From positions 1-32,000 of the forward strand of contig CAZPUN010000033.1 in assembly GCA_964589775.1 (NCBI GenBank): 32,000 bases of DNA. The letters are read 5' to 3'. This stretch comes from an uncultured archaeon. Its GTDB lineage: Archaea > Asgardarchaeota > Thorarchaeia > Thorarchaeales > CAZPUN01. The notes under the pieces were generated by a model. That model saw only the letters and a program-made list of their open reading frames with translations. It was not told where the DNA came from and searched no databases. The translations under genes and the position numbers were made by a program. Of the stretch, positions 5,018 through 22,922 are shown piece after piece. How positions within the stretch are numbered: position 1 is the stretch's first letter; every line of letters begins with the position of its first letter.

Positions 5018-6028
5018 TTAAATTTGTGAGAGTAGATTTAATGGAAAGTCTTTGGCTATCCGACTCTGAATGAGCTGATAAACTTCGTCACTAATGATGT
5101 TTTTGTCTTTTATTTGCGCATCTAAATCGCATATTGCCCGTTCGATTAAAGCATATAATACACGATTATATTTTCTTGAAAGAAAGAATACAATGAGTTC
5201 GCTGCATTTAATAAACTGCAATATGTATCCTTCAAAGATAACATAGCGAATGTCGATTTGTGCTTTCCCGAGTGATTGTGAAATCAGATAAAATATTTCA
5301 GATAATTTATCAATCGACTTTTCAGAAAGTAATGTCTTTGAAAATAACTCAACACCAGTTATATGATATATATGAATTGATTGGACCTTTATTGACACAA
5401 CATAGATAAGAAGTGGTTCTTTTATTACTGCGATTAATAGAAGTGAATCGGCTATTGCAACTACAATTGGAATATATAACTGCAGAGTTTCAAATAACAC
5501 TGATGCAAGCTGAAGAGAAATTTCAGAGCTAAAGCCAAATAATAGAGATACTATGAAAAGATTTGAATACTTTTTATTTAACTTATAAATTTTTGAGGCT
5601 TTGTAGATCTCGTAAGATAGATACATTACAAAAATACCAACAATAATGAACATAATGCCACTTATTAAGTTCAAAGTATCGCTAAACTGAACAAAAATGC
5701 CAATTACAACGTTTTCATCAAAGCTCTGCATAAATAAAACTCCAAAAAGAAATGCAAGAGCAATTTCAATAGGTACAAACCTTTGAAAAATCAATTCTAT
5801 GAAAATAAAAAAAATCAATACGCTAATAATCCCTGAAAAATAGCCGATTATTCCAAACAAAGAAATTCTTGTCAAAATAGCCATCGTTTCGAAAAAGCCT
5901 CTGACACCTAAAAGGATAGAAAATAACGCAAATGATAATAACAACTTACTGCTTCTGCGTATTGAAAAATGTGTTAAAACAAGCCCATTCATAAATAGGA
6001 TTAGCCCACAAACTAATGGAACTATTAT
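5018..6028 (-). CDS. Probable 7TM membrane protein with a C-terminal soluble longin/roadblock-like domain
   Basis: The ORF track gives 5018-5992 (ATG). The frame stays open for 12 more codons to ATA 6028, which lies 6 nt after GGAGGTG. This gives seven hydrophobic segments followed by EPLLIYVVSIKVQSIHIYHITGVELFSK... The fold call is inference. Confidence 0.7.
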   Translation of the reverse strand: MIVPLVCGLILFMNGLVLTHFSIRRSSKLLLSFALFSILLGVRGFFETMAILTRISLFGIIGYFSGIISVLIFFIFIELIFQRFVPIEIALAFLFGVLFMQSFDENVVIGIFVQFSDTLNLISGIMFIIVGIFVMYLSYEIYKASKIYKLNKKYSNLFIVSLLFGFSSEISLQLASVLFETLQLYIPIVVAIADSLLLIAVIKEPLLIYVVSIKVQSIHIYHITGVELFSKTLLSEKSIDKLSEIFYLISQSLGKAQIDIRYVIFEGYILQFIKCSELIVFFLSRKYNRVLYALIERAICDLDAQIKDKNIISDEVYQLIQSRIAKDFPLNLLSQI

Positions 6029-6082: not shown

Positions 6083-6123
6083 AAAAATATCAAAAAATAA
6101 ATAAAAAATAGAGAAAAAGGAAA
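6083..6123 (-). terminator. Multiple oligo-T tracts terminating the giant-gene transcript
   Basis: The minus strand reads tttcctttttctctattttttatttattttttgatattttt just after the stop at 6127. Confidence 0.55.
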
Positions 6124-6126
6124 GAT

Positions 6127-9100
6127 TTATTTCAGACCCAAAGTCTTCAAAAGTTCCTCAGCATCTGCGCGACTAAGTTCCCTTGCTTGTTCGACTACAA
6201 GTTCAATTTCATCTATATCCATACCCATTTCCATGAGCCTACGTCGCATTTCGTCGAGCTCCTCTGGTGAAAGCTTATCCTCTTTCTCTGCTTCTTTAGG
6301 TACTTCAACTGCAGATTCGGCCTTTCTCTTAGCGATCTCTTCAGCTCTACGGGCTTGCTCTTGCTTGATAACCTCTTTGACGAACCCAACTCGCTCACTT
6401 GGTCTCATCTTATACAAGTCTTGCTTGAATGCTTCAATTTCTTCTGGGCCTAAATCAGTTAATTCTGCAAGTTCTCTTAGTAGGTCATCAAGTTCTGGAA
6501 TCTCGATCTTTATTGTTTCCGGCTCAATGTCTTCATCAGTCTTTGTAATTGAATATGGAGCCAAGAACTCATTTACGATATGGAGCAATATCTTTCCACG
6601 ACTGGGAGCCAAGGGAGCCTTAGGTATCTTACCCTTAGAGAGCGATTTAATCAATCTGTTAATCACACGAATTTCTTTTGGTACGCTAAGTACCTTGACA
6701 TAAACTATTACAAATAAGGATATGAACAGAATTGCAATTCCAGCACCAAACATAGTTCTAACTGCAGCTGCCTGCGCTTCAGAGATCTGTGAAATAACTG
6801 TTACCTGAATTGATTGAGGCTCATAGTTTTCCTTCGCTAAACCAATAGTAATAGGGATACTACCCTGACCAGTTATGTGAAGATATATGACGTAAGTTCC
6901 ATTATTGTAATCAATTGTAGCATTGTAATCTACTTCAACACGGTTATTGTCAGCATTAATTGTAACGGTAGCATTTGATATTCCAACATTGTGGAAAGTA
7001 TCCCAGTAGGTAACACGAATCGATAGATAAGCACCAGGTGAACTTTCAATTGATGTCTTAGGTGTGGTTAAGCTCGTAGGAATGGGTACAATTTTAAGAG
7101 TAATTACTGCAGTACTACGTGAATAGTTTGTCTTTTCAAATGTTAAGTCCAAGGTGTAAATTCCAAGTTTCAGGGTTGAAAGCACTGGAAATACATAAGT
7201 TCCATTGCCGAGATCATATAATTGTGTAATTCCACCGATCCAGCTGGCAATTGCAAATGCATTCGGAATTGTCTCATTATTTAGAATGTCTTTGTAGGTA
7301 AATGTCAAATTCTTTGCTACTGTGACCGGTACAGTGTATGTGTAATTTGCAATAATAGTTGTAGGAATTTCATTGACGACTAATGTTACAATTCCAGTAG
7401 AAATACGATAGTTGGATTTTGCAAATCGGATCTTTATATTATAATCTCCGGGTACAACCGCACCAGTATTTATCGTGAAGTAATAGAGACCATTTCCAAG
7501 TTCGGTAAGAGTTCCAGAGCCACCATCCCAAGTGAATGTAGCATCCGCATTTTCAACAGGAACGTCATTATGCGTGTCATTGTAGCGTAAGTAGAATGTG
7601 ACATTTCTGCCATAGTATTCTGTAATCGTAGAATTCAATGCAGTGAATTTGGTAGGTATGTCTTGAATATTAATTGTTATTGTAATAGTAGCTACAGAGT
7701 AGCCGGGCTTGCTAGCACGAATTGTTAGGAAGAATGTACCTACAGATAGTGTTGTTGTATCAATTGTAACTGAATACCAACCACTTCCAAATTCATTTAG
7801 AGATCCTTCAAGTCCAGTAGTCTTGTAGGTTACATTTGCATGAGTAATTGCCAAATTATGTGCAGTATCATTAAAGTATACAAGTATAGAGAGCGTATCA
7901 GTATATATCGGGTCGTAAATTAATTGACCATTGAGTACATTCAATGTAGTGGGTATTGGAGTAACACGAACTGTGATGTAAATCGTTGCATCAACACGAT
8001 CATGAATGCTTGCAGATACTGTGAGTACATATGTACCGATGCTCAGTGGTGAAGTATCAATATTTGCAACATAAAATCCTGCTGTTCCATTTTCAGCCAT
8101 AGTACCAGTTACATTTCCAATTGAGTATGTAATGTTAGCACCTACAATAGGTTGTCCAGTGTTTGTCTGGTTATAGAACACCCACAGTGGTAGATGTACA
8201 CCTTCAATGACTGAGATAGAGTAATGTTCAGTAATGAGTTCTGATTCAGCTTTATATACTACCACATTAATCTGTGTAATTCGGGTCTGATGATTTGTTT
8301 TTGCGGCAGTGATAGACGCAACATAAGTTCCAATTGGATTTGTAGAAGTATCTAAGATCAAGCGATAATATCCATTACCAAGTTCTGTGAAGTTGTATTC
8401 GTTTGTATTCCAAATTAAGGTAAGAGTCACATTGAGTACTGGTTCGTTTGCATACGTGTTGTTAATATAGGCATCAATTTGAATTAAATCGCCCCAATAT
8501 GCTGTGTATGTTGTCTTAGTTAAGACAATTCCCATTGGAATTGCACCGGGCTGGATTGAAAGTCTGGAAGTTATGTTTGCATAAAGATACTTGTTAGCAT
8601 AAACGTTGAAGCTATAAACAATAGCACCAAGACCCGTTGTGTTAATTGTGAGCTGATAAACTCCATTACCTATCTCTGCAACTGTTGTACTCGTATGATA
8701 TAGTTCAGTCCAATTAGAGCTAATGGTAGCACCAATTATTGGAACATTATGATCAATATCAGTGAGTGTAAGATTAATTATTATTGGGTCGCCCACTGGT
8801 ATTGAAGCTGGCTCAGGAATATCTGCTTGAATCTTCATCTGAATTGCACGAACTGTCGCAGGAATCGCACTTGTAGTGATATTAGAGTAGAACGGAGCTA
8901 TATCACTAACATTGAGCGAGAATACAAACATGAAATTACCAATTTTGTTAAATTGACCTGAAGGCACGATTAGGCGATACAAACCATTTCCGAGTGCTAT
9001 TGTGTAATTTATAATGGAACTCTTGTTCAAACATACGAAATACATTTGTGCATTATTAATCGGCTTGCTATTAATGTAATCACGGAATAATAGGGTGATA

Positions 9101-12100
9101 GATAAATTGTCACCGTATGGAACAGTGGTAACTTCTTGAATTAATACTTCTGTGGGTCTTCGAGTCGTACTAAATGTTGCTTGGATACTACGGGTATCAT
9201 AATATGGAACAACATTTCCCCAGACAACGGTTACATTGATCAGATATCTATTTAGAAGAGTTGTACTGGAGAATATCGAAGTGTTGATCGATATAGTATA
9301 AACGCCATTGCTACCAGTTAGACTGTAATCACCGGAAGCTAATATTGTATTTGACGGACCATGCCCTATAATTATATTTGATTTATCGATACTTAGACCA
9401 GAGCCATTCAAATAGTCACTATAACTTATGATAAACGTAATGTTTTCATTGAATGGCACGTCTGCAGGAGTCTTTACAAAGTGTAAATCTACAGGACGAT
9501 GCACAACATTCACATTAATGATTTTTGATCGTGTCTGATAATATGGCGAGCCAGACTTTGAAATCGTAACATTAATTGCAAATGTATCTACACTACCAAG
9601 TGCAACAGAGGATATTGAAATGAGATACCATCCATTGCCATTATCCTGTACCCAATAGTTAACGTCTTTGACAAGTACTTCTGCAGAAGTATCACAGGAT
9701 ATTACAACTAATGCATTACTTATTCCTGCACCAGTTGTATCATCACTATAGCTAACGGAAATATTTACTAATTCAAGGTATGGAGTATCTTCAGGAAATT
9801 CGTATCCCAATTGAGTTGAACGACCAACCACGGTAATATACAAGAAATCTGTTGCATTGTTGCAAAAGTTCGTTCCAGTATAGGCAATGTGCACACTAAT
9901 ACCGAACAGGCCTGTTCCGTTAAGTATTGTAGTATTTAGATGCACAACATATGTACCATCACCATTATCATCCACAGTGTACCAGCCTGCTAATGTGTCA
10001 TTAAGTGTAATAATTCCACCATACATATTACTGGAACTTCCAGATTCAAGATCTGTGAATGTAAATGGAATATCAATTATGTTGCCATATTGTACTGGCT
10101 GATAACCACCATGAGATAATTGAGTGTGCCTACGAATAACAACTATTTGGATGGCTTCATATGTTTGATTTGCATAGAATGGTGCACCACTCCATGTTAC
10201 CGATAGATGGAACGTAAATGTACCAATGTTGTTCCAACTTGATGCATTTATCATAACTACAAATTTTCCGGTATCATCACCCAGATATACAACAGAGTAG
10301 ATCACATTTCCTTCCACAATTGAAACAGTAATTGAACTCGAATTACGAATGAATTCATTCTTAAGAACATCAACAAATGTGAATGTAAGATTGCCAATTT
10401 CAGCATATGGTGTGGTTGGAATTGGATTGAATGAGATGTACGTAGGTCGTGATTGAATCATCACGGTAACAATCATGGTTTTATTTTCATAAAGTGGTGA
10501 TTGCCCGCGAGTCCAGTTCGCATAAATTCTGAACTGATATGTTCCATAGCTCATTAGTAGAGATGAATTAAGTGTGAATGAATACTCACCGGGAGATCCA
10601 GCTGGATCAACTTCTGCAATTACAAAATCGGATTGTGATACTGTTTCACCAGGATTTAGAACAACAACATAAAGATGTACATTTCCGGGATAAAGCCCTG
10701 TGCTATTTACAATTCCTGTACTATTTACAACATCATAATAAATAACTGTGAATGTAATATTATCAAGATAATAAATTGTTCCAGGGCTTTGTCCGATATA
10801 CAGGTCAGTTTGAGTACCAGTAATTCTGACACGTATGGTGAGTGTTTTGTTTTCATATTTGGGTTCTGCACCAGTCCAATTCACATAAACTGTAAACTCT
10901 TTCCAACCAATACTACCCCATTGGGCTGTAGGAATGGTTATATTATAATGTCCATCACCAGTTGTAGCATTAGCTACATAATAAATCGGCGAAGCAACTT
11001 CGGGTATTACAACATAAATTAAGACATTATGCCCATTTGCAGTTCCATTCGCAATACCTTCGTCTAAATCAGCATCGTAATAGTATACAAGAACGGTAAT
11101 ATTTGAACCATAAGCGGTCTGGGATACAGGTTCATCTAGAGTAAAACTTGTAGCATGAGAACGAACTTCAATGGTAATATATATCGTATGGTTTTGACAA
11201 CCATAGCGGGATACCGTAATTGCTACAGTCCAGCTTTTGAGAGGATCTGTATTGACCGTATAGAAGGTCATATTGTATACTCCATTTCCGAGTTCTGTAA
11301 GAGTATAATTTGGATCCCCTAAAGAGTGATAAGAAGTCCAATTAGCAGTGATGTTTGAAACTGCCCCAGTAATTGGTTCATCATGATCGATATCCCAGTA
11401 TGTTAGATTTATTGATACGGCCTCACCCAAAGGTATCGGGAGATAATTTGCAGACGTCGTAAATGAAGTGTATAGTTCATGAACAGTAACATACATGGAT
11501 AATGTTACAGTATGATAGAATTCCTTTGCGAATGTTATATCGACAACATAGCTCTTTAGTTCTACTGAACTCGTATTCAGTTCTACTTTATAATGTCCGG
11601 GGCTTCCAGTAATGGGATATATAGTGTATGCATTTGCGCTCCAATTACAACTTAGTGGAGCATTACTAATTGGATTACCCATCTGGTCTTCAAGATACAC
11701 GTTAAACGAAATATTCCAGCCTTTTGGACCAGAAACTCCGGGATATTGTGGCGAGGACATATGGGATTCATAATATACGTAGATTATAAGATCTTGAACT
11801 ACAGCATCAAAATATTGTCTTTGCCAAGAGATTCGTATGACAAACTTTCCATTACTTCCTAACTGAGTCGTATTGAGAATTGTTGCATATTCTCCGTTTC
11901 CATTATCATCCATATACTCGGTTCCAGTGGTCCAATTGTAAGTCATTACTCCAGATGGAACTAGAATACCACTATCAGTATCATGAGCCCTAATTCTCAA
12001 TAGAACCAAGTCGCCATATGTTACATTTGTATTCCAGTCAGAAGATGCATCTGAAGGATCTACAACAGATAGAGCGGTTGCATGAGTCACTGTGAACTTT

Positions 12101-13932
12101 CTAAGGAAGAATCCAACATCGTATATACCACCTGCACTAACAGTACTGTTTGTATATGCTTGAATTGTCCATTCTCCTGCTGATGCATTACTTCCCGCTA
12201 AATTAAATACGCCTGTAGTAGCGATTCCTGAGGATACTGTTGCGATAGTTGTCGCCCATACAGAACCATCAGGAGCAAAAATCGTAAAGTTAACTTTATC
12301 ACCATCAAATGATGTACCCACATAGGCACGAATCTGTATTGAATCACCAGCTCTGAAGTTTCCTGTTTTAGACCACGTGGAAGTACTTGAATCATATATT
12401 TCAAGATTAGTAATCATATTTGGAGAAACACCTTTAATTGGCCAGAATCCAATCTTGTCTGCAAATGGAATCGTATCTACAGATACATTGAGATATCCGT
12501 CGCCATAATCTCCACCAGACCACCCACTAGTAAGATTTGTATTGGGATCCAATGGTTTTGCAACAAACCGCACATCACGCGTTGTAGGAATTGTTAGATT
12601 ATAGAAGTAATCATCTTCATATCCAACTGGAATCTGAACAAGGAAATATGAAGACCAAGATGCATCACTACCATTACTTATTTCGAAGTTTTCGCCTATA
12701 GCTGACGGGTCTGCAGCATATACAGTCTTATTCACTTCGTTTCTAGCGTATAGGTTTAGAGAGACATCAAACTCAACTTCAATGTATAAATCGGGATCAG
12801 GTGGATTAGGAGATGGCGTCCATGTGAAGTTTGCAATTGCTGAAGTACCAGTCCATAAATATGATTGAGATACTGCACCAGTACCGTAAATAGCTCCATC
12901 ATTTACGGTAAGAGAATTCATCTTCAGATTAATTTGACTGGGGGCAACTTTAGTTTTCATATATAATTTTACATTGTCAATTCGTGCAGCGGGTAAAATA
13001 TCTGGATTATATCCAACACTTTGAGTTGTTAGAAGACCTATTTCAATAGTGAATGTATCGCCATTATCAAGGTCTAATAAACTTGGATCTAGATTAATTA
13101 ATCCAGTATTATACCAGACATTTTCCGCTCCAATTTGACTGAAGGCTAATGTCCAATCACGATCATTTACATTTGTTGAATTTATGATCATATAGAGAAC
13201 AAATGAACCAGTCATACCATAGTGAGTTGTATCTCGAGTCTCGGCTTGATAATCCATCGAGAATGCCATCCATGTTATAGTGCCACGGTCCACAGTTACA
13301 GTTTGACGAGCATATACATGATCTCCATTATCATACCAATAGTTTCCACTACTGTATCGTCCATCAATTGTGAAACGAACGTCATCATCATTTGTTCCGT
13401 GGCCATCATCTTCCCAGAAGGAATTCATTGTGTTTGCAGAACCTGCATCTGATGTACCAAGAGTCCAACCAGTTGCGCTTCCTTGAAATCCGGGATTTGT
13501 AACCCATGTCCGGTTTTCAGTAATATGAGTTAGATGAGCATCCATGTAATATCCAGTCCAATCTTTACCAATGGGTACAGAGGGCGTTGCATAGCTTGTA
13601 CCACTTGCGGGGTCATAGTGGATTTTTATGTCTTCATAAGACACAGTACGATTTGCATATTGCCCCGCAGGATTTCCTGCGCCAATACCGGAATAAGATT
13701 TCCATACGCCTGATGCAACATCATATTCCCAAAGTATTTCATCAGGTGAGATATTGACCTTAGTCCCATCATCTAGTACAATAGTACTTGATGGAGGCGA
13801 AGAGCTCTTATGTTCAGCCCCAGGATACACGGGAATGCCATTTCCAAAATAGGAAATTGAAAATAGCATAATCATTACTAATACCATTGCATTGACTTTA
13901 TTTATTTTCCGAATATTCTTTCCCATCTTCAT
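6127..13932 (-). CDS. Giant single-pass cell-surface (glyco)protein, paralog B: signal peptide, CBM/jelly-roll-like head, ~17-18 Ig-like repeats, TM helix, cytoplasmic helical domain
   Basis: 2601-aa uninterrupted ORF. It has a basic-then-hydrophobic N-terminus and an NPGF...W to IDNVKLY head. The ~100-aa modules carry T-x-L starts and YxD..GIxxA and ELGNGxY motifs. The TM helix GAGIAILFISLFVIVYV lies near 6690-6750, followed by a charged tail. Confidence 0.93.
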   Translation of the reverse strand: MKMGKNIRKINKVNAMVLVMIMLFSISYFGNGIPVYPGAEHKSSSPPSSTIVLDDGTKVNISPDEILWEYDVASGVWKSYSGIGAGNPAGQYANRTVSYEDIKIHYDPASGTSYATPSVPIGKDWTGYYMDAHLTHITENRTWVTNPGFQGSATGWTLGTSDAGSANTMNSFWEDDGHGTNDDDVRFTIDGRYSSGNYWYDNGDHVYARQTVTVDRGTITWMAFSMDYQAETRDTTHYGMTGSFVLYMIINSTNVNDRDWTLAFSQIGAENVWYNTGLINLDPSLLDLDNGDTFTIEIGLLTTQSVGYNPDILPAARIDNVKLYMKTKVAPSQINLKMNSLTVNDGAIYGTGAVSQSYLWTGTSAIANFTWTPSPNPPDPDLYIEVEFDVSLNLYARNEVNKTVYAADPSAIGENFEISNGSDASWSSYFLVQIPVGYEDDYFYNLTIPTTRDVRFVAKPLDPNTNLTSGWSGGDYGDGYLNVSVDTIPFADKIGFWPIKGVSPNMITNLEIYDSSTSTWSKTGNFRAGDSIQIRAYVGTSFDGDKVNFTIFAPDGSVWATTIATVSSGIATTGVFNLAGSNASAGEWTIQAYTNSTVSAGGIYDVGFFLRKFTVTHATALSVVDPSDASSDWNTNVTYGDLVLLRIRAHDTDSGILVPSGVMTYNWTTGTEYMDDNGNGEYATILNTTQLGSNGKFVIRISWQRQYFDAVVQDLIIYVYYESHMSSPQYPGVSGPKGWNISFNVYLEDQMGNPISNAPLSCNWSANAYTIYPITGSPGHYKVELNTSSVELKSYVVDITFAKEFYHTVTLSMYVTVHELYTSFTTSANYLPIPLGEAVSINLTYWDIDHDEPITGAVSNITANWTSYHSLGDPNYTLTELGNGVYNMTFYTVNTDPLKSWTVAITVSRYGCQNHTIYITIEVRSHATSFTLDEPVSQTAYGSNITVLVYYYDADLDEGIANGTANGHNVLIYVVIPEVASPIYYVANATTGDGHYNITIPTAQWGSIGWKEFTVYVNWTGAEPKYENKTLTIRVRITGTQTDLYIGQSPGTIYYLDNITFTVIYYDVVNSTGIVNSTGLYPGNVHLYVVVLNPGETVSQSDFVIAEVDPAGSPGEYSFTLNSSLLMSYGTYQFRIYANWTRGQSPLYENKTMIVTVMIQSRPTYISFNPIPTTPYAEIGNLTFTFVDVLKNEFIRNSSSITVSIVEGNVIYSVVYLGDDTGKFVVMINASSWNNIGTFTFHLSVTWSGAPFYANQTYEAIQIVVIRRHTQLSHGGYQPVQYGNIIDIPFTFTDLESGSSSNMYGGIITLNDTLAGWYTVDDNGDGTYVVHLNTTILNGTGLFGISVHIAYTGTNFCNNATDFLYITVVGRSTQLGYEFPEDTPYLELVNISVSYSDDTTGAGISNALVVISCDTSAEVLVKDVNYWVQDNGNGWYLISISSVALGSVDTFAINVTISKSGSPYYQTRSKIINVNVVHRPVDLHFVKTPADVPFNENITFIISYSDYLNGSGLSIDKSNIIIGHGPSNTILASGDYSLTGSNGVYTISINTSIFSSTTLLNRYLINVTVVWGNVVPYYDTRSIQATFSTTRRPTEVLIQEVTTVPYGDNLSITLLFRDYINSKPINNAQMYFVCLNKSSIINYTIALGNGLYRLIVPSGQFNKIGNFMFVFSLNVSDIAPFYSNITTSAIPATVRAIQMKIQADIPEPASIPVGDPIIINLTLTDIDHNVPIIGATISSNWTELYHTSTTVAEIGNGVYQLTINTTGLGAIVYSFNVYANKYLYANITSRLSIQPGAIPMGIVLTKTTYTAYWGDLIQIDAYINNTYANEPVLNVTLTLIWNTNEYNFTELGNGYYRLILDTSTNPIGTYVASITAAKTNHQTRITQINVVVYKAESELITEHYSISVIEGVHLPLWVFYNQTNTGQPIVGANITYSIGNVTGTMAENGTAGFYVANIDTSPLSIGTYVLTVSASIHDRVDATIYITVRVTPIPTTLNVLNGQLIYDPIYTDTLSILVYFNDTAHNLAITHANVTYKTTGLEGSLNEFGSGWYSVTIDTTTLSVGTFFLTIRASKPGYSVATITITINIQDIPTKFTALNSTITEYYGRNVTFYLRYNDTHNDVPVENADATFTWDGGSGTLTELGNGLYYFTINTGAVVPGDYNIKIRFAKSNYRISTGIVTLVVNEIPTTIIANYTYTVPVTVAKNLTFTYKDILNNETIPNAFAIASWIGGITQLYDLGNGTYVFPVLSTLKLGIYTLDLTFEKTNYSRSTAVITLKIVPIPTSLTTPKTSIESSPGAYLSIRVTYWDTFHNVGISNATVTINADNNRVEVDYNATIDYNNGTYVIYLHITGQGSIPITIGLAKENYEPQSIQVTVISQISEAQAAAVRTMFGAGIAILFISLFVIVYVKVLSVPKEIRVINRLIKSLSKGKIPKAPLAPSRGKILLHIVNEFLAPYSITKTDEDIEPETIKIEIPELDDLLRELAELTDLGPEEIEAFKQDLYKMRPSERVGFVKEVIKQEQARRAEEIAKRKAESAVEVPKEAEKEDKLSPEELDEMRRRLMEMGMDIDEIELVVEQARELSRADAEELLKTLGLK

Positions 13933-13936
13933 GATC

Positions 13937-16900
13937 TCACCCTCTTAGAATTGTATCCAGCAAGGCGTCTAAATCGGCTCTTGAGAGCTCTTTCGCCTGC
14001 TCAAGTATTAATTCGATCTCAGAGTCTGAAATTCCTTTTTCTTTAAGTTTCTTTCTTAATTCTTCAATCTCTTCTTCTGTCAAATGTTCGGGTTTCTCCT
14101 TAGGCTTAGGCTTCTCAATAGGAGTCTTCCCTTCGGCAATAGCTTTCGCCCGCCGAGCCCGCTCTTGTGCTATTACCTCCTTAACGAATCCTATTCTCTC
14201 ACTTGCTTTCATCTTGTATAGATCTTCCTTGAATTCTTCAATGTCTTCCTCAGATAGACCTGTAATAGATGCCAACTCTTCAAGTAGTGCACTAAGCTCT
14301 GGGACTTTGATACTAATCGGAAATTCAACAATGTCATCTGGTGTCTTCGTAATTCCAAAAGGCTCTAGATATTGCTGTATAATGGAAATAAGTATTTCAT
14401 GACGGGACGGTGCGGGAGGTACAGGAGGTATCTTACCTTTCTCAAGTCTTTTAACAATCTTGTTAATTCTTCGAACGGGCTTTGGAATACTAAATACCTT
14501 AATCCATAACGCACCAAGAATTACAATAACAAAGATTCCTACGAAGCCATAAGAGATCATTCTGAAGAATGCCATTTGCTGTTCATTGTATTGAGAATAA
14601 ACTATGATTTGAATTTCACTAGTTCTGTAATCCTGCTTGTGAGCTTTGATATTTATGAAGAATGTTCCGATATCATTAATTGTAAAGTTCATAGCATATG
14701 TTCCGTTGTTGTAGTCTATGACTTTACCCTCAAAATGAATTCTATCTGAAGAAGTATCGACATCAATCGTTGCATTAGGTATAGATCTATTGTGATATGT
14801 GTCGTAATAGACAAATCTTAGAGTATATAGATCTCCAGGCGAGAAGTACACCTCAGTTACAGATATCTTAATTTCTGTAGGAATCAAAATGATTGAGAGA
14901 ACAACTTCTTCTTGCTTAATAGAGTAGTTCATCTTAGAGAATACGAGCGTCAATGTGTAATTATTAGGTTCTAACTTGAACTGATCCTCAAATGATGATG
15001 AACTGAATACGTATGTTCCATTGTGCATATCTGTGAGTTCAACGATTCCAAATGTCCATAACAATGAGACAGAGGCATTAGGAATTCCAAGATCATTAAG
15101 AGAATCCATGTAGGTAAATCTTAAATTGAATGGGTCTCCAACAGGATAAATCAATTTCTGCGGTAGAATTACAGTTGTCGGAATCTCCTTAATTCGTAAT
15201 ATGACAGACTTGCGTGCTGAATCATGATACTTTGCATCAAGAACAATTGTGATACTATATTGTCCGGGTCTTGCTTCACCAGTATTGACAATAATATAGA
15301 AGGTTCCGTTTCCATAAGAATATACATTTCCAGAACCAATAATCCAGCGATAAGTTCCATTTGCTGCTAAAATTGCTTTGTTATTTAACGTGTCATTAAA
15401 GTATACTTTGAATGTAACATTTCGTCCATAATATTCCTCAATTACGGGGTTTAGTGTTATTATTTCCGTAGGAATAGACAGTACATTTAATGTTGGACGA
15501 ATATACGCGGAACGATATCCAGTTTTCTGAGCAGTGATAGAAATGTAAAAGCTTCCAATTTCTGCTTTTGATGTGTTTATAATTGCAAAGTACCATCCAT
15601 TGCCAAGTTCTGTTAAGTTTCCAGAAGCGAATGTAGAGGAATACATTACTGTTGCATGTAATACTGGAATGTTCAACTTGGTGTTGTATACATATACAGT
15701 AATATTCACGGTTTGACCGTGATAACAATTGATAATTTGAATTCCGTCTTTTATACTAATTGCAGTAGGTACAGACTCGATTGTTAATGTCATGAATACA
15801 CTTGATTCTGCATAGTTATCTTTCTTTGCACTGATATATAACGTATAGGTTCCAATTGGATATTCATTGATCGTAATATTTCCAACATAATAACCTGCGG
15901 TTCCATTTGCAATTAATGTACCACTGCCAAATTCCCACTCGAATGTAACAGTCGCACCACTTATGGGATGACCAAAATATGTGTCGTTATAGAAGACCCA
16001 GAAGGTAATTGTTTCTTGATCGACTGCTTCAAATGTAAGCGTGTCACTTGAAAGTGATGTACTAACCTTTATAATCGTCAGCGTAACTTGAGCAACAGGT
16101 GAACGATAATTTGTTTTATTTCCGGAAATTGTAATGATATAGGTACCCACAGGCTCAATTTGTGTATTAAATGTCAAACTGTATGTTCCATTTCCATATG
16201 AAGTGAAATTCGTATATGTATTACCTGCCCAGACTGCTTGTAAATCGAATCCGGTTAATGGAAGTACATTGTGGCTATCCCATACTGTAAGAACTATAGT
16301 AACATTCTCAGTCCATACTACTGAAATTACAGATTTCTTCAAATCAATTGATGTAGGAATTGGTGCTAACTCAATATCGACATCCGCAGTCTTATTAAGG
16401 TGTGTTTGCTTGCCTGCCCAAACTGTAAATGAATATACTTGAGCATTCAACCCTACAGTTGAAATATTTAATTGATAAATACCATTTCCAAGTTCTGTAA
16501 TTGTAATTGAAGTACCATAGAGCTGCTGCCAGTTTACAGTAATATTTGCACCTTCAATTCCAGTATCACTATCAATATTCCAATAGGTCACGTTTGCAAT
16601 TACATTGTCGCCGACAGGGACGGTACCAGGAGTTGGAACACTCACTTGTAATAAAGTACTAATAGATCGTAAAGTAGCATATACATGACCGTTTAATTGA
16701 TCTTGATAGTATGGACTTGGTGTGTATGTGAAATTGACAGAGAACAAGTATTTTCCTAGATTCGGTAATTGTGAGCTGTTAACTATGAATGAGTAATATC
16801 CATTGCCAAGATATATTACATCATAAGTAATTGAACCCGTTGCATTGATACATATAAGTGATGTATTAGCACCACTAATACCACGGGTTGTGTAAAAGTC

Positions 16901-19900
16901 TTCATATCGAATAGTAATTGTAATATTATTTCCATACGCAACTGAAGGCACCTGCAAGAACACAAGCCTAGTTGGTCGTTCAACAATACTAACTTCTGTA
17001 GTAACACTAATGTTGTCATAGTATGGAGCAATATTACCCCAGATTATTGTTATGTTGATTATATGACCAGATACTAAGACTGATGTAAGTATTGTCGAAT
17101 TCAAAGATATAGTGTATAAGCCAGAACCACCTGTGAGTACATATTGGTTTGCAGTAATCAAAGTATTGGACGTACCATGAGTAAGGATTATGTTCGCTTT
17201 CGTAATGTCGATTCCACTATCGGTAAGACCATCACGGAATGAGAACTGGAATGTGACATTATTCATGAATGGTGTGTCGACAGGTGTCTTCACGATAGTT
17301 AATTTCGCATTTCTTAATGTGACAACAACTTCAACAGTACGAGAATTATCGGTATAATAAGGTATTCCAGTCCAACTTGCTACAATATCAATCTCATAGG
17401 AACCAAGACCACCAAGGGCAGTAGTATTAATGGATACAAGATACCATCCATTACCTTGGTATGATACAAAATAGTTAACATTTAATTGTAATGTCTCATT
17501 TGCTGTTGCACAGCTTGCAGTAATAGTTGCACCATAAATTCCACGGCTTGTAGTATCATCATAGTATCGTACCGATATATTTGCGAATTCAAGATATGGT
17601 GCAGGGTCTGGAATCTCATAACCAAGCTGAGCTCTTCTTTGTATTACAACAACATAAAATACATCTACAGCGTTATCGCAATAATTCGAACCATTATAAG
17701 TGACCGTAGCAACAACTGCAAATGTACCGAGATTCTGGAATCCAGATGAGTTCAAATATAATGTAAATGATCCGTCACCATTGAACGTGTACGTGTAATA
17801 TCCAGCTAAGCTAGCATTAAGTTCTAAAGTTCCAGACATACCAGTAGTAGAACCAGAATCAAGATCGGTATATGTGAAACTGAGAGTTAGCACATTTGCA
17901 AATTGAACGGGTTCATAAGAGCCATGAGTTAGCTGAGTATGACGATAACGGATATTTATTGTGATTTCCTGACCTGTGTGATTTTGATAGAATGGCCACC
18001 CAACTAACGTAACATTTAGATGAAATACAAATGTACCAGGATTGCCCCAGCTTGTTGTATTAATTTCAAAATGGAACATACCAGTATCATTTCCATCGTA
18101 ATAGATGACGTAAATTATACCGCTTTCTACAATAGATACATACATATTAGAAGAATAATTAATGTGATTACCACTTAACAGATCTACAACCTTGAATGAG
18201 AAGTTTACTAACTCATTGTATGGCGTAGTAGGTATAGGAGTCCAATCAATATATGTTTGTCTCTGAAGAACTCTGAATATTATCTCAATTGTTTGATTTT
18301 CATATAGTGGAAGTTGTCCCTTCGTCCAATTGAATTGGATACGAACTGTAAATTCACCTATACGAGAAAGCTTAGAGGTGTCCAGTTTAAATTCGTAGTA
18401 TCCGGCTTGAGTTTCATTAATCCAGAAATCAGATTGTGTAACACTCTCACCACTGGTTATCATTGTAATGAATACGTGTACATTTCCAGCATAAGCTCCG
18501 GTTGAATTTGCAATTCCAGTATTATTGGCTGTGTCCCAATATGCTAAAGTCCAAGAAGTATTTGTCATATATTGGACAGCATCAGGACTATGTATGATTT
18601 TTATCATTGTTTCGGAGCCTGTAATTCGCACTTTGATATCCAACGTCTTATTATAGTATTTTAATGAAGAGCCGGTCCAATTTACATAAACTGTAAACTC
18701 TTTCCAGCCAATACTACCCCATTGGTCTGCAGGTAGTGTAATATTATAATGACCTGCACCAGTAGTCGCATTTGTTACAACGTATTGCAGATTGATACCA
18801 GAAGCAACTAAATAAATCAGTACATTATGACCATTAGCAGTGTCATTGGCAATTCCAACGTTCATAGATGCATCATAGTAATAGACAGTCACAACAATCG
18901 TTCCGGTATATGGCGTAGGATTAACGGGATTATCTAGTGAAAATGACGTGAGGTGTGTCTTTACATCAATATGAATTGTAAGCGTGTGATTCTGATAACC
19001 ATATTTTTCAATATTAATCTGAACCGTATAACTACCAAGTGGATCATTATTGTATGAGTAAAATCGAATTCTATAAACTCCATTTCCATAATCAAATATA
19101 GTGTAATTTATTTGCCCTGAAGTATGGAAGCTACACCAATCTGTTGAAAATGCATCACTATCACCAATCATCGGCAAGTCTTGATCTGTATCATGATAGG
19201 TAATATTCAAATCAACGTATCCACCCACGGGTAACGTTAAGAATGATGCGGACGGTGTAGCAGAAGTATATAGTTCTCGAACTGTGACTTGAAGAATTAT
19301 TTTCTTGGAATATACATATTCCTTCGATGCATTAATTTCTATCTTGTAAGTTCCTAAGTCATATGGCTCTGCATTTATATGAATTCGATATGAGCCAGGA
19401 GTTCCAGTTGCAATAACAGAATAGTCAGACCAATTACATGTAATTGTAGCTCCCGTGATTCCATTATTGTTTTGGTCTACAAAATCAACATAAATATCAC
19501 CGTAAGCCGTCTTAGGAACTGAAATTCCGGGTGATGATGATGAAGTTAATTGTGAGTCATAATAAACTTCGAGATAGAAATAATGCTGTTTTGAATCATA
19601 ATATGCTTTACTCCAAGAGATGCTTAAGGTAAATCGCCCATTACTACCCAGTTGTGTTGTATTAAGAACTACGCTGTATTCACCAGTTCCAAGATCACTT
19701 AACTGTTCGATTCCGGTAGTCCAATTATATGTCATTACACCGCCAGGGACACTCTCACCCGCATCAACATCCTGAATACGGATTTTTACAAGAATATTAT
19801 CACCAAAAGTTGCTGTTGTAGTCCAAGTACTCTGTGCTGATAATGGATAGTAAAGGGTAATATCAGTAGCATGTGTTATTGTGAATTTTCTTAAGAAGAA

Positions 19901-21751
19901 ACCTACATTATTTAGTGCTCCAAGAGCCGAATCATTTGCCCAGACTTGAATTGTCCATTCACCCACAGTTGCATTAGTACCACCTAATGTAAAAGCATCA
20001 GAGTACGCATAACCAGTAGCATCAACTGTGGAAGTGCATGAATACCATAAGTTTCCACTCGGGTCGTAGATTGTAAAATTAACTACTGCGTTTGCATAAG
20101 CAGTACCAATATATGCACGTATTTTAGTCCGATCATTTGCTCTGAAATTGTATGTCTTAGAGTAAGTACTAGTACTTGGAACTAAAACTTCAACGTTTGA
20201 AATCATGTTAGGTGATGTGCCTTTAAGTTTCCAATAACCATTTATTCTCTGTGAGGTTTCACCATATTCTGTGTAAATAATTTCAGCTGCACTAATATTT
20301 ACCAAACCGTCGCCAGGATCTCCATAACTCCACCCACTTGTTTGATTCAGCCAGGGCTTAGAAGGTTCAGCTAAGAAATTAATATCTCGATTTTGAGGTA
20401 TTGTAACATTGAAGAAGAAATGTGGGTCATATCCTGACGGCACCGCAACATAATAATAGAAGTTCCATTGAACATTCGTGCCATTTTGCACTGAGAAATG
20501 CTCACCTAATGCACCAGGATCAATATCATAAATTGTCTTTCCATTTAATCGTCGTGCATATAATGTTAATTGAACGTCCATTTCAACAATAATTGTCAGG
20601 TCAGGGTCAGGTGGATTAGGAATTGGAGTCCATGTGAATACTGCATCAACACTTGATCCAGTCCAGGGTGTTGAAGGTACTTGAGTTACTTGACCCATGC
20701 CCCATAAGGTATTACTACCACTTTGTACATCTGAAACATCAATATTATTCATTTTCAAATTCAGGTTAGAGGGCTTTGCTTCAGTTTTCATATACAGATG
20801 TACATTATCAAAATACGCACGTGGAGAAATATCAATATAACCATACCATTCGGTTTGAGTAGTATTTAAACCAAGCTCAATTGTTACATCAGGTAATGTA
20901 AATATATCTGGAGAAACGGGAATCAAACCAGTATTATACCAATTTTCAGAGGGAATAGCATCATAGACTCTGCTCCAGACTTTATGTCTAACACCATTAG
21001 AAATTATCGTAACATAAATTTCAAAGAATCCAGTGGGAGTATATCCATATCTATCCCAAGCCGTAGTAACTCGATAGCTTAAAGATACAGCCGCCCAAAA
21101 TACATTCCCACGATCTATTGACATAGATTGTTGTACATATGCATAATCACCTGCATCGTACCAGTACCACGTGTTACCGCCGCCAGAACCATCATAGCTG
21201 TATGAAGTGTATTCACCATCTATACCTAAGGATGCAACACCAGAATCAACCTGATGAATGAAACTATTTACATAATGAGGGTTCCCACTATCGTCAGTAT
21301 ATGGTTGAAGATCATTATGCCCAAAAGTCCAGTAGCTGGTATCATCAAAACCAGGATTTCGAACCCATGTACGGTTCTCAGATAAATTAGTAATATTAGC
21401 GAAAAGACGATAACCTTCCCAGTTAGAACCAAGAGGGACTGAATCTGTTGCACTTGTAGTTCCGCTTCCGGGAATATACCGCAGTTGCGTAGCCGCAAAC
21501 GTATCAGTACGGTCACCATATTCATACACATCAAGTGCATCACCAGTACCTGAATATTCGCTTAATGCTTGCGATATAGTAAATGTGTCTATATCAGGTA
21601 CTGAATTTTGGTTATCGATTTCAGTATCCGCATTTGACTCAACCACTCTATCATCAGTATTTCTATTTAGATTAATAATTGGAAATACAGCTAGAGTGGG
21701 CAGAACAAGAATAACCAATAGTAATATCATCTTTTTATTTTTCAATAGCAA
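13937..21751 (-). CDS. Giant single-pass cell-surface (glyco)protein, paralog A, same architecture as 6127-13932
   Basis: 2604-aa ORF collinear with paralog B. Shared blocks include ENRTWVxNPGF, PNPPDPDL, GFFLRKFT, QWGSIGWKEFTVYVNWTG and ELSRAD. The TM helix lies near 14495-14560. GAGGTG at 21754-21759 favours a start at TTG 21745. Confidence 0.93.
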   Translation of the reverse strand: MLLKNKKMILLLVILVLPTLAVFPIINLNRNTDDRVVESNADTEIDNQNSVPDIDTFTISQALSEYSGTGDALDVYEYGDRTDTFAATQLRYIPGSGTTSATDSVPLGSNWEGYRLFANITNLSENRTWVRNPGFDDTSYWTFGHNDLQPYTDDSGNPHYVNSFIHQVDSGVASLGIDGEYTSYSYDGSGGGNTWYWYDAGDYAYVQQSMSIDRGNVFWAAVSLSYRVTTAWDRYGYTPTGFFEIYVTIISNGVRHKVWSRVYDAIPSENWYNTGLIPVSPDIFTLPDVTIELGLNTTQTEWYGYIDISPRAYFDNVHLYMKTEAKPSNLNLKMNNIDVSDVQSGSNTLWGMGQVTQVPSTPWTGSSVDAVFTWTPIPNPPDPDLTIIVEMDVQLTLYARRLNGKTIYDIDPGALGEHFSVQNGTNVQWNFYYYVAVPSGYDPHFFFNVTIPQNRDINFLAEPSKPWLNQTSGWSYGDPGDGLVNISAAEIIYTEYGETSQRINGYWKLKGTSPNMISNVEVLVPSTSTYSKTYNFRANDRTKIRAYIGTAYANAVVNFTIYDPSGNLWYSCTSTVDATGYAYSDAFTLGGTNATVGEWTIQVWANDSALGALNNVGFFLRKFTITHATDITLYYPLSAQSTWTTTATFGDNILVKIRIQDVDAGESVPGGVMTYNWTTGIEQLSDLGTGEYSVVLNTTQLGSNGRFTLSISWSKAYYDSKQHYFYLEVYYDSQLTSSSSPGISVPKTAYGDIYVDFVDQNNNGITGATITCNWSDYSVIATGTPGSYRIHINAEPYDLGTYKIEINASKEYVYSKKIILQVTVRELYTSATPSASFLTLPVGGYVDLNITYHDTDQDLPMIGDSDAFSTDWCSFHTSGQINYTIFDYGNGVYRIRFYSYNNDPLGSYTVQINIEKYGYQNHTLTIHIDVKTHLTSFSLDNPVNPTPYTGTIVVTVYYYDASMNVGIANDTANGHNVLIYLVASGINLQYVVTNATTGAGHYNITLPADQWGSIGWKEFTVYVNWTGSSLKYYNKTLDIKVRITGSETMIKIIHSPDAVQYMTNTSWTLAYWDTANNTGIANSTGAYAGNVHVFITMITSGESVTQSDFWINETQAGYYEFKLDTSKLSRIGEFTVRIQFNWTKGQLPLYENQTIEIIFRVLQRQTYIDWTPIPTTPYNELVNFSFKVVDLLSGNHINYSSNMYVSIVESGIIYVIYYDGNDTGMFHFEINTTSWGNPGTFVFHLNVTLVGWPFYQNHTGQEITINIRYRHTQLTHGSYEPVQFANVLTLSFTYTDLDSGSTTGMSGTLELNASLAGYYTYTFNGDGSFTLYLNSSGFQNLGTFAVVATVTYNGSNYCDNAVDVFYVVVIQRRAQLGYEIPDPAPYLEFANISVRYYDDTTSRGIYGATITASCATANETLQLNVNYFVSYQGNGWYLVSINTTALGGLGSYEIDIVASWTGIPYYTDNSRTVEVVVTLRNAKLTIVKTPVDTPFMNNVTFQFSFRDGLTDSGIDITKANIILTHGTSNTLITANQYVLTGGSGLYTISLNSTILTSVLVSGHIINITIIWGNIAPYYDNISVTTEVSIVERPTRLVFLQVPSVAYGNNITITIRYEDFYTTRGISGANTSLICINATGSITYDVIYLGNGYYSFIVNSSQLPNLGKYLFSVNFTYTPSPYYQDQLNGHVYATLRSISTLLQVSVPTPGTVPVGDNVIANVTYWNIDSDTGIEGANITVNWQQLYGTSITITELGNGIYQLNISTVGLNAQVYSFTVWAGKQTHLNKTADVDIELAPIPTSIDLKKSVISVVWTENVTIVLTVWDSHNVLPLTGFDLQAVWAGNTYTNFTSYGNGTYSLTFNTQIEPVGTYIITISGNKTNYRSPVAQVTLTIIKVSTSLSSDTLTFEAVDQETITFWVFYNDTYFGHPISGATVTFEWEFGSGTLIANGTAGYYVGNITINEYPIGTYTLYISAKKDNYAESSVFMTLTIESVPTAISIKDGIQIINCYHGQTVNITVYVYNTKLNIPVLHATVMYSSTFASGNLTELGNGWYFAIINTSKAEIGSFYISITAQKTGYRSAYIRPTLNVLSIPTEIITLNPVIEEYYGRNVTFKVYFNDTLNNKAILAANGTYRWIIGSGNVYSYGNGTFYIIVNTGEARPGQYSITIVLDAKYHDSARKSVILRIKEIPTTVILPQKLIYPVGDPFNLRFTYMDSLNDLGIPNASVSLLWTFGIVELTDMHNGTYVFSSSSFEDQFKLEPNNYTLTLVFSKMNYSIKQEEVVLSIILIPTEIKISVTEVYFSPGDLYTLRFVYYDTYHNRSIPNATIDVDTSSDRIHFEGKVIDYNNGTYAMNFTINDIGTFFINIKAHKQDYRTSEIQIIVYSQYNEQQMAFFRMISYGFVGIFVIVILGALWIKVFSIPKPVRRINKIVKRLEKGKIPPVPPAPSRHEILISIIQQYLEPFGITKTPDDIVEFPISIKVPELSALLEELASITGLSEEDIEEFKEDLYKMKASERIGFVKEVIAQERARRAKAIAEGKTPIEKPKPKEKPEHLTEEEIEELRKKLKEKGISDSEIELILEQAKELSRADLDALLDTILRG

Positions 21752-21759
21752 AGCACCTC

Positions 21760-21907
21760 TAACCTATTGATAATCAATCATAAAGTCTCAATTGTAATAA
21801 ATTTCTAATTATGAATATATAAATAAAATTTGTATGTATAGAACAAACACTCACATTTTGAAATAAAAAAGGAAAAAAATATTAATGAAAAGAGTTTACG
21901 GACACTC
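21760..21907. promoter_or_regulatory. AT-rich divergent promoter region between the giant-protein operon and GAPDH
   Basis: Very AT-rich gap between divergently oriented genes, with TATA-like tatataaata near 21816-21825. The exact boxes cannot be assigned. Confidence 0.45.
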
Positions 21908-21920
21908 GGAGGAACCGAAT

Positions 21921-22922
21921 TTGGTAAGAGTCGCAATTAACGGTTTTGGCCGTATAGGACGAAACTATATGAAAGCCGCACTGGAACACAAGGATATTGA
22001 GATCGTCGCAATTAATGACCTAACATCGCCGGACATGCTCGCATATCTTTTCAAATATGATAGTGTTTTTGGCAAATTCAAAGGCGAAGTAAAGGTTGAA
22101 GGCGATCATTTAACGATTAATGGGCGTAAAATCAAGGTTCTCTCTGAACCAGATCCTTCAAAGCTTCCATGGAAAGATTTGAACATTGATATTGTAATTG
22201 AAAGCACTGGAAGATTTCGAAAGAGAAAGGACGCACAGAAACATCTAGAAGCGGGAGCTAAGAAGGTGATAATTTCTGCACCAGCTACAGATGAGGATAT
22301 TACGATCGTTTTAGGGGTAAATGATAAGGACTATGAACCTGAGAAGCACCATATTATATCAAATGCAAGCTGCACAACAAATTGCCTTGCACCAATTGCA
22401 AAAGTCCTTCATGAAAAGTTCAAAATCATAAAGGGTACAATGACCACTGTACATGCCTATACAAATGACCAAAGAATCTTGGATTACCCACATAAGAAAT
22501 TCACACGAGCCAGAGCCGCCGCACAAAACATTATCCCGACAACTACAGGAGCTGCAGAAGCCATTTCAAAAGTACTACCGGAACTTGAAGGAAAACTAAT
22601 AGGTGTTGCATTACGTGTTCCGGTACCTGATGCTTCAATTGTAGACCTAGTTGTCGAAGTCGAAAAGGAAACAACTGTTGAGGAAGTAAAGAAGGCATTC
22701 AAAGAAGCAGCTGAAGGAAGCATGAAGGGAATACTGGGATACTGCGAAGAGCCTTTAGTATCTTCAGATTATATAGGAGATTCTAGAAGTTCTATTGTCG
22801 ATGCAAATAATGTATGGGTAATAAATAAAAACATGGTCAAGGTCTTTTCGTGGTATGATAACGAGTGGGGTTACTCATCTAGACTTGTGGACCTGACCAA
22901 ACTAGTTGCATCGAAATTGTAA
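21921..22922 (+). CDS. gap: Class I glyceraldehyde-3-phosphate dehydrogenase, probably NAD-dependent
   Basis: Contains [18 protein letters not shown], catalytic [45 protein letters not shown] and [15 protein letters not shown] at 21908-21912 lies 8 nt before TTG 21921, so the ORF-track start at 21885 is probably too long. Confidence 0.96.

Follow-up and report, generated by a model that had tools for sequence, protein, structure and literature searches.

In Sulfolobales, SlaA and SlaB form a two-gene unit whose products, unrelated to each other, co-assemble, and the tetrabrachion of Staphylothermus stands on a coiled-coil stalk of ~70 nm. Here we set against these and other described systems a pair of adjacent giant genes, A and B, from an Asgard archaeon, a member of the closest known prokaryotic relatives of eukaryotes. 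Both genes lie in a stretch of 32,000 nucleotides (nt), hereafter the window, that corresponds to positions 1 to 32,000 of contig CAZPUN010000033.1 (GenBank assembly GCA_964589775.1) and derives from an uncultured member of the order Thorarchaeales, whose genome (2.16 Mb, 96.75% complete) was the only representative of its family among the genomes searched. Cryo-electron tomography (cryo-ET) of a cultured Lokiarchaeon detected no surface layer (S-layer) and many unidentified complex surface proteins, which were proposed to serve cell-cell contacts relevant to eukaryogenesis (PMC9834061); comparable cryo-ET data for Thorarchaeota were not found in the literature searched. Archaeal proteins of at least 5000 amino acids (aa) with an N-terminal Laminin_G_3 domain have been noted as 'not understood' (PMC11573180), and the searches made found no paper on the A/B pair or on the protein family defined by its cytoplasmic tail. 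The pair is a concrete, order-wide candidate for a surface structure of this kind in Thorarchaeota.

Taken singly, the parts of A and B are of known kinds, comprising a tip that resembles carbohydrate-binding modules (CBM) and MAM domains, immunoglobulin (Ig)-like repeats, and an archaeal C-terminal anchor with heavy predicted glycosylation. The novelty lies in a translationally coupled pair of paralogues, found across the order, whose stalks are frozen at 17 modules, together with an Asgard-restricted family of cytoplasmic tails. We propose, with evenly balanced confidence, that A and B work together as one fixed-height core surface structure, built either as a hetero-oligomer or in the form of a mixed layer or canopy. 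A two-gene operon would yield similar quantities of these two anciently diverged paralogues. Both begin with a signal peptide and a lectin-type CBM/MAM-like head, continue in a rigid-looking stalk of 17 Ig-like domains and a single transmembrane (TM) helix, and end inside the cell in a helical tail that is conserved and specific to the family. The ligands of the heads would be glycans, adjacent cells or particles, and through the tails the structure would be fastened to a cytoplasmic partner. A and B are large enough to see in tomograms, where a defined height would be expected because the stalk length is fixed, and the conserved, foldable tail could be used as bait for intracellular partners.

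Archaeal S-layer and stalk glycoproteins (Haloferax volcanii csg and others) share with A and B an N-glycosylated ectodomain rich in beta-sandwiches (glycosylation of A and B being a prediction), a C-terminal anchor and a fixed height. Their anchor is short or of the PGF-CTERM type, whereas A and B continue into a structured tail of ~183 aa, no PGF motif precedes their TM helix, and no sequence homology to S-layer glycoproteins was detected with Pfam or NCBIfam. Like SlaA and SlaB, A and B form a two-gene unit, but unlike them they are paralogous, and the coiled coil of tetrabrachion contrasts with their 17 Ig-like domains. Bacterial Ig-repeat adhesins, including Periscope proteins and the Big_1 proteins intimin, invasin and FdeC, are likewise rod-like Ig arrays that present a distant head, but they are anchored in the cell wall or outer membrane, whereas A and B end in a TM helix and a cytoplasmic tail. 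Periscope repeats are near-identical and vary in number between strains (PMC9704523), in contrast to the old repeats of A and B, about 13-33% identical and fixed at 17 throughout the order.

Architecture and coupling of A and B

The first-pass annotation of the window, made from the letters alone, had described open reading frames (ORFs) of 2604 and 2601 aa lying 4 nt apart, and both lengths and coordinates were confirmed (Table 1). For gene A, the first of these lengths is counted from a TTG at 21751; the TTG at 21745, giving 2602 aa, is more likely to be the true start, because it lies 8 nt after GAGGTG (21759-21754) instead of 2 nt, and because the resulting MKNKK and hydrophobic run make an N-terminus resembling those of relatives. 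GAGGTG is itself complementary to the 3' end of the genome's own 16S rRNA.

A hidden Markov model (HMM) of the stalk module, grown from the last modules, found exactly 17 modules per protein at matching positions in A and B. The best B score of each A module fell on its positional counterpart (17/17; diagonal mean 232, off-diagonal mean 59), in agreement with the 17 Ig-like modules that the first-pass annotation had matched one-for-one by eye. Given this one-to-one matching and a within-protein module identity of only about 13-33%, the array is old and the pair arose by duplication of a whole 17-module gene. Remote similarity suggests that the modules are Ig-like domains of the Big_1/filamin type: their profile matched the Ig-like Big_1/intimin-type domain of FdeC (4e9l) at E 5e-6 and filamin at E 1e-3 in the Protein Data Bank (PDB), and Pfam matches to Big_1, Filamin and Invasin_D3 all fell below curated cut-offs, with MG4 also weak. 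If extended, each stalk would measure ~70-80 nm.

Hydropathy scans gave each protein an N-terminal hydrophobic signal and a single TM helix near the C-terminus, after which comes a strongly basic stretch. The two proteins contain 76 and 80 N-x-S/T sequons, a 2.3-fold excess over the ~34 expected, and none follows the TM helix. The signal peptide, the TM helix and the confinement of the sequon excess to the ectodomain suggest that A and B are type I, N-glycosylated surface proteins. In a global alignment A and B were 44.6% identical; of its 2642 columns 79 contained gaps, ~19 of them in the 1750-aa stalk, and no gene conversion between the two was evident from it. Of the features that the first-pass annotation had listed, the single TM helix and the homologous tails (55% identical) are found in both proteins, its head-proximal module corresponds to an MG2-like beta-sandwich (Pfam MG2, below threshold), and its 'strongly diverged' sequences are indeed divergent but only moderately so.

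An AlphaFold2 model of the B head, built from 35 aligned heads, is all-beta. Its tip (model residues ~109-299) aligned with MAM domains (meprin, RPTPmu) and with CBM16, CBM61, CBM4 and CBM70 at Z scores of 11.3-13 (root-mean-square deviation (rmsd) 2.8-3.6, 134-146 residues), the best matches being the meprin MAM domain (Z 13.0, rmsd 2.8, 144 aa), CBM70 (12.6), CBM16 (12.0), CBM61 (11.9) and CBM4 (11.6). The model thus has at its tip a predicted CBM/MAM galactose-binding-like jelly roll, and Pfam gave no CBM match above threshold on the head. One domain of the B head also aligned with the Haloferax S-layer protein 7ptp (Z 11.2, 101 residues).

Translational coupling had been suggested in the first-pass annotation from the position of the A stop codon, TGA, inside a sequence resembling a Shine-Dalgarno motif (SD) of B. 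The heptamer GGTGATC, which contains this stop and abuts the B ATG, is a perfect complement of the 3' end of the genome's 16S rRNA (...GGATCACCTCCT) and therefore a perfect 7-nt SD match. Amongst 19 relatives, 16 have an upstream gene that ends in a GGAGG-type motif ~8-10 nt before a TGA overlapping the B start (ATGA; GTGA in three), and two more have a TAATG overlap. The coupling signal is therefore conserved, though its exact form differs in the window, where a 4-nt spacer separates the genes.

Conservation and history of the pair

Full-length relatives of B were present in 40/41 genomes of the order, and the tail profile found relatives in 81/86 genomes of the sister family. In 35/87 genomes of the order, two pair-type tails shared a contig and strand at a spacing of 7.6-7.8 kb; in four further genomes the partner was cut by a contig end, and in most of the remainder the genes lay on short contigs. 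The B-type gene was always downstream, at least 16 genera keep the pair as a unit, in the same strict order and with a stop codon that overlaps the next start, and an independent database protein (P0004) also proved to be part of such a pair. Flanks of the pair in the sister family are syntenic across genera (class I tRNA synthetase, LPG_synthase_TM, PHP, UbiA and DUF362), and housekeeping flanks of this kind, unusual for giant adhesins, point to a core rather than an accessory role.

Nineteen pairs were extracted, 14 with both genes complete and 16 with a complete A-type. Every protein in them has 17 modules; a few were counted as 16 with an unchanged stalk span, which we took as HMM misses. 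In the 14 complete pairs the stalks span 1754-1772 aa (A) and 1741-1760 aa (B), with a standard deviation of per-module length of at most 3 aa, and tails are ~181-191 aa. B-types total 2557-2626 aa, and A-types either 2564-2618 or 2879-2914 aa. Orthologues are thus coupled tandem pairs of 17-module proteins across the order, not the solitary proteins or freely varying arrays that the first-pass annotation had named as the contrary pattern. Its 'length-matched' description holds for stalk length and module number but not always for total length, since 7 of the 16 A-types are ~290 aa longer.

Four giant genes in a row occur in one relative and constitute two complete A/B pairs (G021:C22:9-30108; L030, L031). 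Each of these pairs groups with a different subclade, which suggests that a whole pair was duplicated or acquired. In another relative (L037, G028:C3:350500-370000) the A-type is split into ORFs of 1418, 915 and ~316 aa beside an intact B, as a pseudogene or through assembly frameshift errors.

Phylogenetic analyses placed upstream and downstream copies in two reciprocal clades with mirrored internal topology (support of 100 in FastTree and 99 in IQ-TREE), this genome's A and B each being basal in its own clade. These trees favour, without proving, a single ancestral duplication; the alternative in which this genome's A and B are sisters costs 46.6 log-likelihood units and has p = 0.056 in the approximately unbiased (AU) test. 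An identity of 44-45% between A and B here, compared with 36-42% between B and its orthologues in the other family, together with a lineage-specific duplication not firmly rejected at that AU value, would be in keeping with a redundant copy of recent origin, an artefact of the assembly or a gene in decay, lacking joint function. We regard such an origin as extremely improbable, because third-codon-position identity between A and B is ~0.4, near saturation, and their longest exact DNA match is 23 nt, as expected of old copies and not of collapsed repeats, because both genes are undamaged in this genome and in almost every relative, and because the split between upstream and downstream copies has a support of 99-100.

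The evolutionary rates of A and B are equal in the tree. Pairwise distances for A tracked those for B (r = 0.975), with a partial r of 0.85 given six linked neighbour genes; control genes gave -0.01 to 0.75. Conserved positions specific to one paralogue numbered 46 against 355 shared by both, and were spread out with no obvious interface patch. Block-wise co-variation between A and B (diagonal mean 0.50, off-diagonal mean -0.07) was not counted, as the same split between distal and proximal regions appeared within A alone and slow and fast regions can respond differently to linear correction.

Beyond the pair, other giants in Thorarchaeota and a second Asgard family have in common with A and B the TM helix, the juxtamembrane motif and the first unit of the tail, along with Ig-like repeats and lectin-type heads. 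Their open frames run from ~1,100 to 6,500 aa, and database lengths of other tail-bearing relatives from 1,520 to 5,543 aa; all database relatives are annotated as 'hypothetical protein', and some have been called LamG-domain proteins. In contrast to the fixed coupled pair, which is confined to the A/B lineage, these giants vary in length and are often solitary or in unequal tandem arrays. A long Ig stalk frozen at one repeat number in two old paralogues, amid relatives that vary, is unusual and makes stalk length testable as a selected trait.

The window genome itself holds a third, solitary family member (G000:C21:141985-155271, plus strand), a 4428-aa paralogue with 32 modules, 130 sequons, and a homologous head and tail with a long acidic linker. 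Another Asgard family (f14; G142:C15, G141:C24 and G145:C3) has arrays of 3-4 large proteins with open frames of 745-2325 aa, each ending in the same TM helix and first tail unit (E 1e-11 to 1e-17).

Tips, tails and the function of the pair

In 7/16 complete A-types, and in no B-type, the jelly roll of the tip is interrupted by a ~290-aa NHL beta-propeller; in the A-type of G006 this insert matched Pfam NHL at E 6e-33 (111.7 bits, cut-off 20). Neither window protein carries the insert. Long A-types with a six-bladed propeller were seen at L021:16607-17719 (minus strand), in G006, G008, G009, G014, G019, G020 and G029, and at L110, and their patchy distribution on the tree suggests that the propeller was gained or lost repeatedly.

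A propeller acquired by A-types only suggests different ligands, and tip domains are 36% identical between paralogues against 47-49% between orthologues. Both observations would suit independent paralogous adhesins or lectins that are made together without touching and bind different ligands, in which coupling would serve co-expression only and stalk length would be fixed since each protein must reach the same distance, for example past a glycoprotein coat. Stalks lacking charge complementarity, and the tandem arrays of unmatched length formed by tail-bearing giants in another Asgard family, are also consistent with this account, which we consider a serious possibility of clearly lower probability than joint action. 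It leaves unexplained the strict order and stop/start overlap over at least 16 genera, the duplication of a whole pair, and the constancy of module number in both members while related proteins vary freely.

The case for joint action of A and B in one surface structure is that their pairing and order are strict, their translation is coupled, the pair was duplicated whole and its members evolve at equal rates, that the stalks are frozen where those of relatives vary, and that the distances track each other. A complex prediction for the TM helix and tail of A with those of B (score 0.01, mark 0.32) counts neither for nor against pairing. Several observations weigh against joint action. The pairwise distances of A and B lack independence, and selection acting alike on both surface proteins could give the same correlation. 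The AU test rejects a separate duplication in this lineage only marginally (p = 0.056, as above), and one single-contig genome of the order (86% complete) is without the pair. Another single-contig genome has an apparent mis-join within paralogues. Net charge is negative in every module of both stalks, leaving no charge complementarity for a lateral zipper along the stalk, and a full-length zipper is further disfavoured by heads that are not always of the same size. As only A-type heads gain or lose the propeller, the tips of A and B need not be in register.

The tail would provide the link to the cell interior. Its AlphaFold2 model, built from 38 sequences, runs from the TM helix through an amphipathic helix and a conserved loop (KG-x-IP-x-PA-x-V-x-x-R in the consensus, where G, P and R are invariant) to a pair of small three-helix bundles with a charged linker between them. 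Nothing scored above curated cut-offs in Pfam or NCBIfam for either protein, nor in Pfam for the heads and all 38 tails, in 12 of which RecX_HTH1 matched below threshold. Fold searches of the PDB returned only generic three-helix-bundle matches (Z at most 7), and a Protein Atlas feature search gave no usable match. As to a UBA/CUE-like nature of the tail units, they are three-helix bundles in the model, UBA and CUE are absent from the Pfam listing, and the structural matches are generic. The tail profile retrieved only 167 proteins among 1.84 billion representatives, and the family appears to be found almost only in Asgard archaea. In some relatives the three-helix unit of ~45 aa at the end of the tail is repeated in tandem, with up to four copies (database fragments P0118 and P0124; P0057, P0061, P0062 and P0084), which suggests that this unit is a repeatable module.

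A structured, conserved tail, equal stalks and conserved coupling would also accord with the first-pass proposal of a heterodimeric receptor, aligned 1:1, side by side and in register, that signals across the membrane with an integrin- or cadherin-like logic. Foldseek matched the B head best to Eph and RPTPmu ectodomains (E 2e-8 to 1e-5), and A and B share with Eph and the MAM-Ig-FN3 proteins RPTPmu and RPTPkappa a common plan of jelly-roll tip, beta-sandwiches, single TM helix and folded cytoplasmic part; the co-variation of equivalent A and B regions would point the same way, had the block-wise result not been discounted. Whole-chain TM-scores to Eph and RPTPmu were 0.12-0.25 at ~10% identity, so that the likeness is one of fold and layout and does not imply homology, the A/B stalk is much longer, and the kinase and phosphatase domains of those receptors are absent from the A/B scans. 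Integrin alpha and beta chains are likewise two type I membrane proteins with short cytoplasmic tails, the A/B pair being comparable as a proposed adhesion unit, by analogy only. The FG-GAP propeller, betaI/VWA, PSI and EGF domains (Pfam to E 0.1-10) and the NPxY and GFFKR motifs were not found in A or B, no Cadherin-family match emerged from whole-protein or per-module Pfam scans, and Pfam and NCBIfam found no other signalling domain. Integrin subunits, moreover, are not paralogues of equal design, whereas A and B are collinear paralogues, 44.6% identical, and the integrin/cadherin comparison of the first-pass annotation is therefore retained as an analogy. SH3_1 and SH3_2, as partners for the Pro-rich loop, were not found in this genome, other SH3-like families not having been searched. 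With only generic matches for the tail, stalks that are acidic throughout and heads not always equal in size, we judge a signalling heterodimer of this kind to be unlikely.

Somewhat less doubtful, though still improbable, is a stronger form of the co-assembly that we infer, namely an obligate hetero-oligomeric unit of ~80 nm that belongs to the core of the Thorarchaeal cell, spans the membrane and couples contact at the tip, with glycans or partner cells, to the cell interior through the Asgard-restricted tail. Such a unit would be a prokaryotic parallel, evolved independently in the lineage closest to eukaryotes, to the paired adhesion receptors of eukaryotes.

Locus map and neighbouring genes

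Table 1. Positions of the A/B features in the window
Feature	Position	Strand	Description
Gene A (upstream, A-type)	13937-21751	minus	2604 aa counted from TTG 21751; predicted type I membrane glycoprotein
Gene B (downstream, B-type)	6127-13932	minus	2601 aa; predicted type I membrane glycoprotein
A upstream region	21752..21830	minus	AT-rich TATA-like stretch ~21814-21828; Shine-Dalgarno GAGGTG 21754-21759
A head	19847..21664	minus	aa ~30-635; predicted CBM/MAM-like jelly roll, then beta-sandwich domains including an MG2-like one; by homology to B head
A stalk	14579..19846	minus	17 Ig-like modules, aa 636-2391; own module HMM
A TM helix and juxtamembrane motif	14480..14575	minus	aa ~2393-2424; hydropathy scan and alignment
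A tail	13940..14479	minus	~180 aa; basic amphipathic helix, Pro-rich loop ending in Arg, two three-helix units, charged linker; no sequons
Coupling junction	13930..13944	minus	GAGGGTGA at 13944-13937, including A stop TGA 13939-13937; GATC spacer; B ATG 13932-13930
B head	12058..13845	minus	aa 30-625; jelly-roll tip aa ~139-327 and beta-sandwich domains; AlphaFold2 pLDDT 88.5
B stalk	6775..12057	minus	17 Ig-like modules, aa 626-2386; own module HMM
B TM helix	6676..6765	minus	aa ~2390-2419
B tail	6130..6675	minus	182 aa; AlphaFold2 pLDDT 90.5, all-helical, two three-helix bundles
Oligo-T tracts	6085..6126	minus	3' of B stop; likely end of the two-gene transcript

The TATA-like stretch upstream of A might act as its promoter. 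Oligo-T terminators are known in archaea, and the several oligo-T tracts after B are likely to be one; as a new SD for the next gene follows them, the transcription unit would consist of two genes. A scan for sigma-70 promoters and terminators, whose model is inapplicable to archaea, gave counts equal to shuffles, and Rfam gave no match within the window.

Directly downstream of B, positions 5018-5992 (minus strand) encode a multi-TM protein of 324 aa whose C-terminal domain is soluble. This gene was considered as a third member of the unit and rejected, having its own SD and being separated from B by the oligo-T tracts. It has no Pfam match and was not found beside the pair in the 1-2 kb flanks examined in relatives, where the neighbours are tyrosyl-/tryptophanyl-tRNA synthetase (TyrRS/TrpRS)-type and lipid-related genes.

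Elsewhere in the genome, an unrelated ORF of 2599 aa (G000:C1:4591-12390, minus strand) gave no match to the module, head or tail HMMs, and its similar length is apparently a coincidence. Two antisense ORFs within B, at 6233-6703 (plus strand, 156 aa) and 10675-11022 (plus strand, 115 aa), are most likely spurious. Further along the window, 24193-25239 (plus strand) encodes an oligopeptide-type ABC ATPase (ABC_tran and oligo_HPY), next to which no permease or binding-protein gene was recognised among the ORFs scanned. Divergent from gene A lies a glyceraldehyde-3-phosphate dehydrogenase (GAPDH) gene at 21885-22922 (plus strand; Gp_dh_N E 1e-41, Gp_dh_C E 2e-68), of the bacterial/eukaryotic class I type in this Asgard genome.

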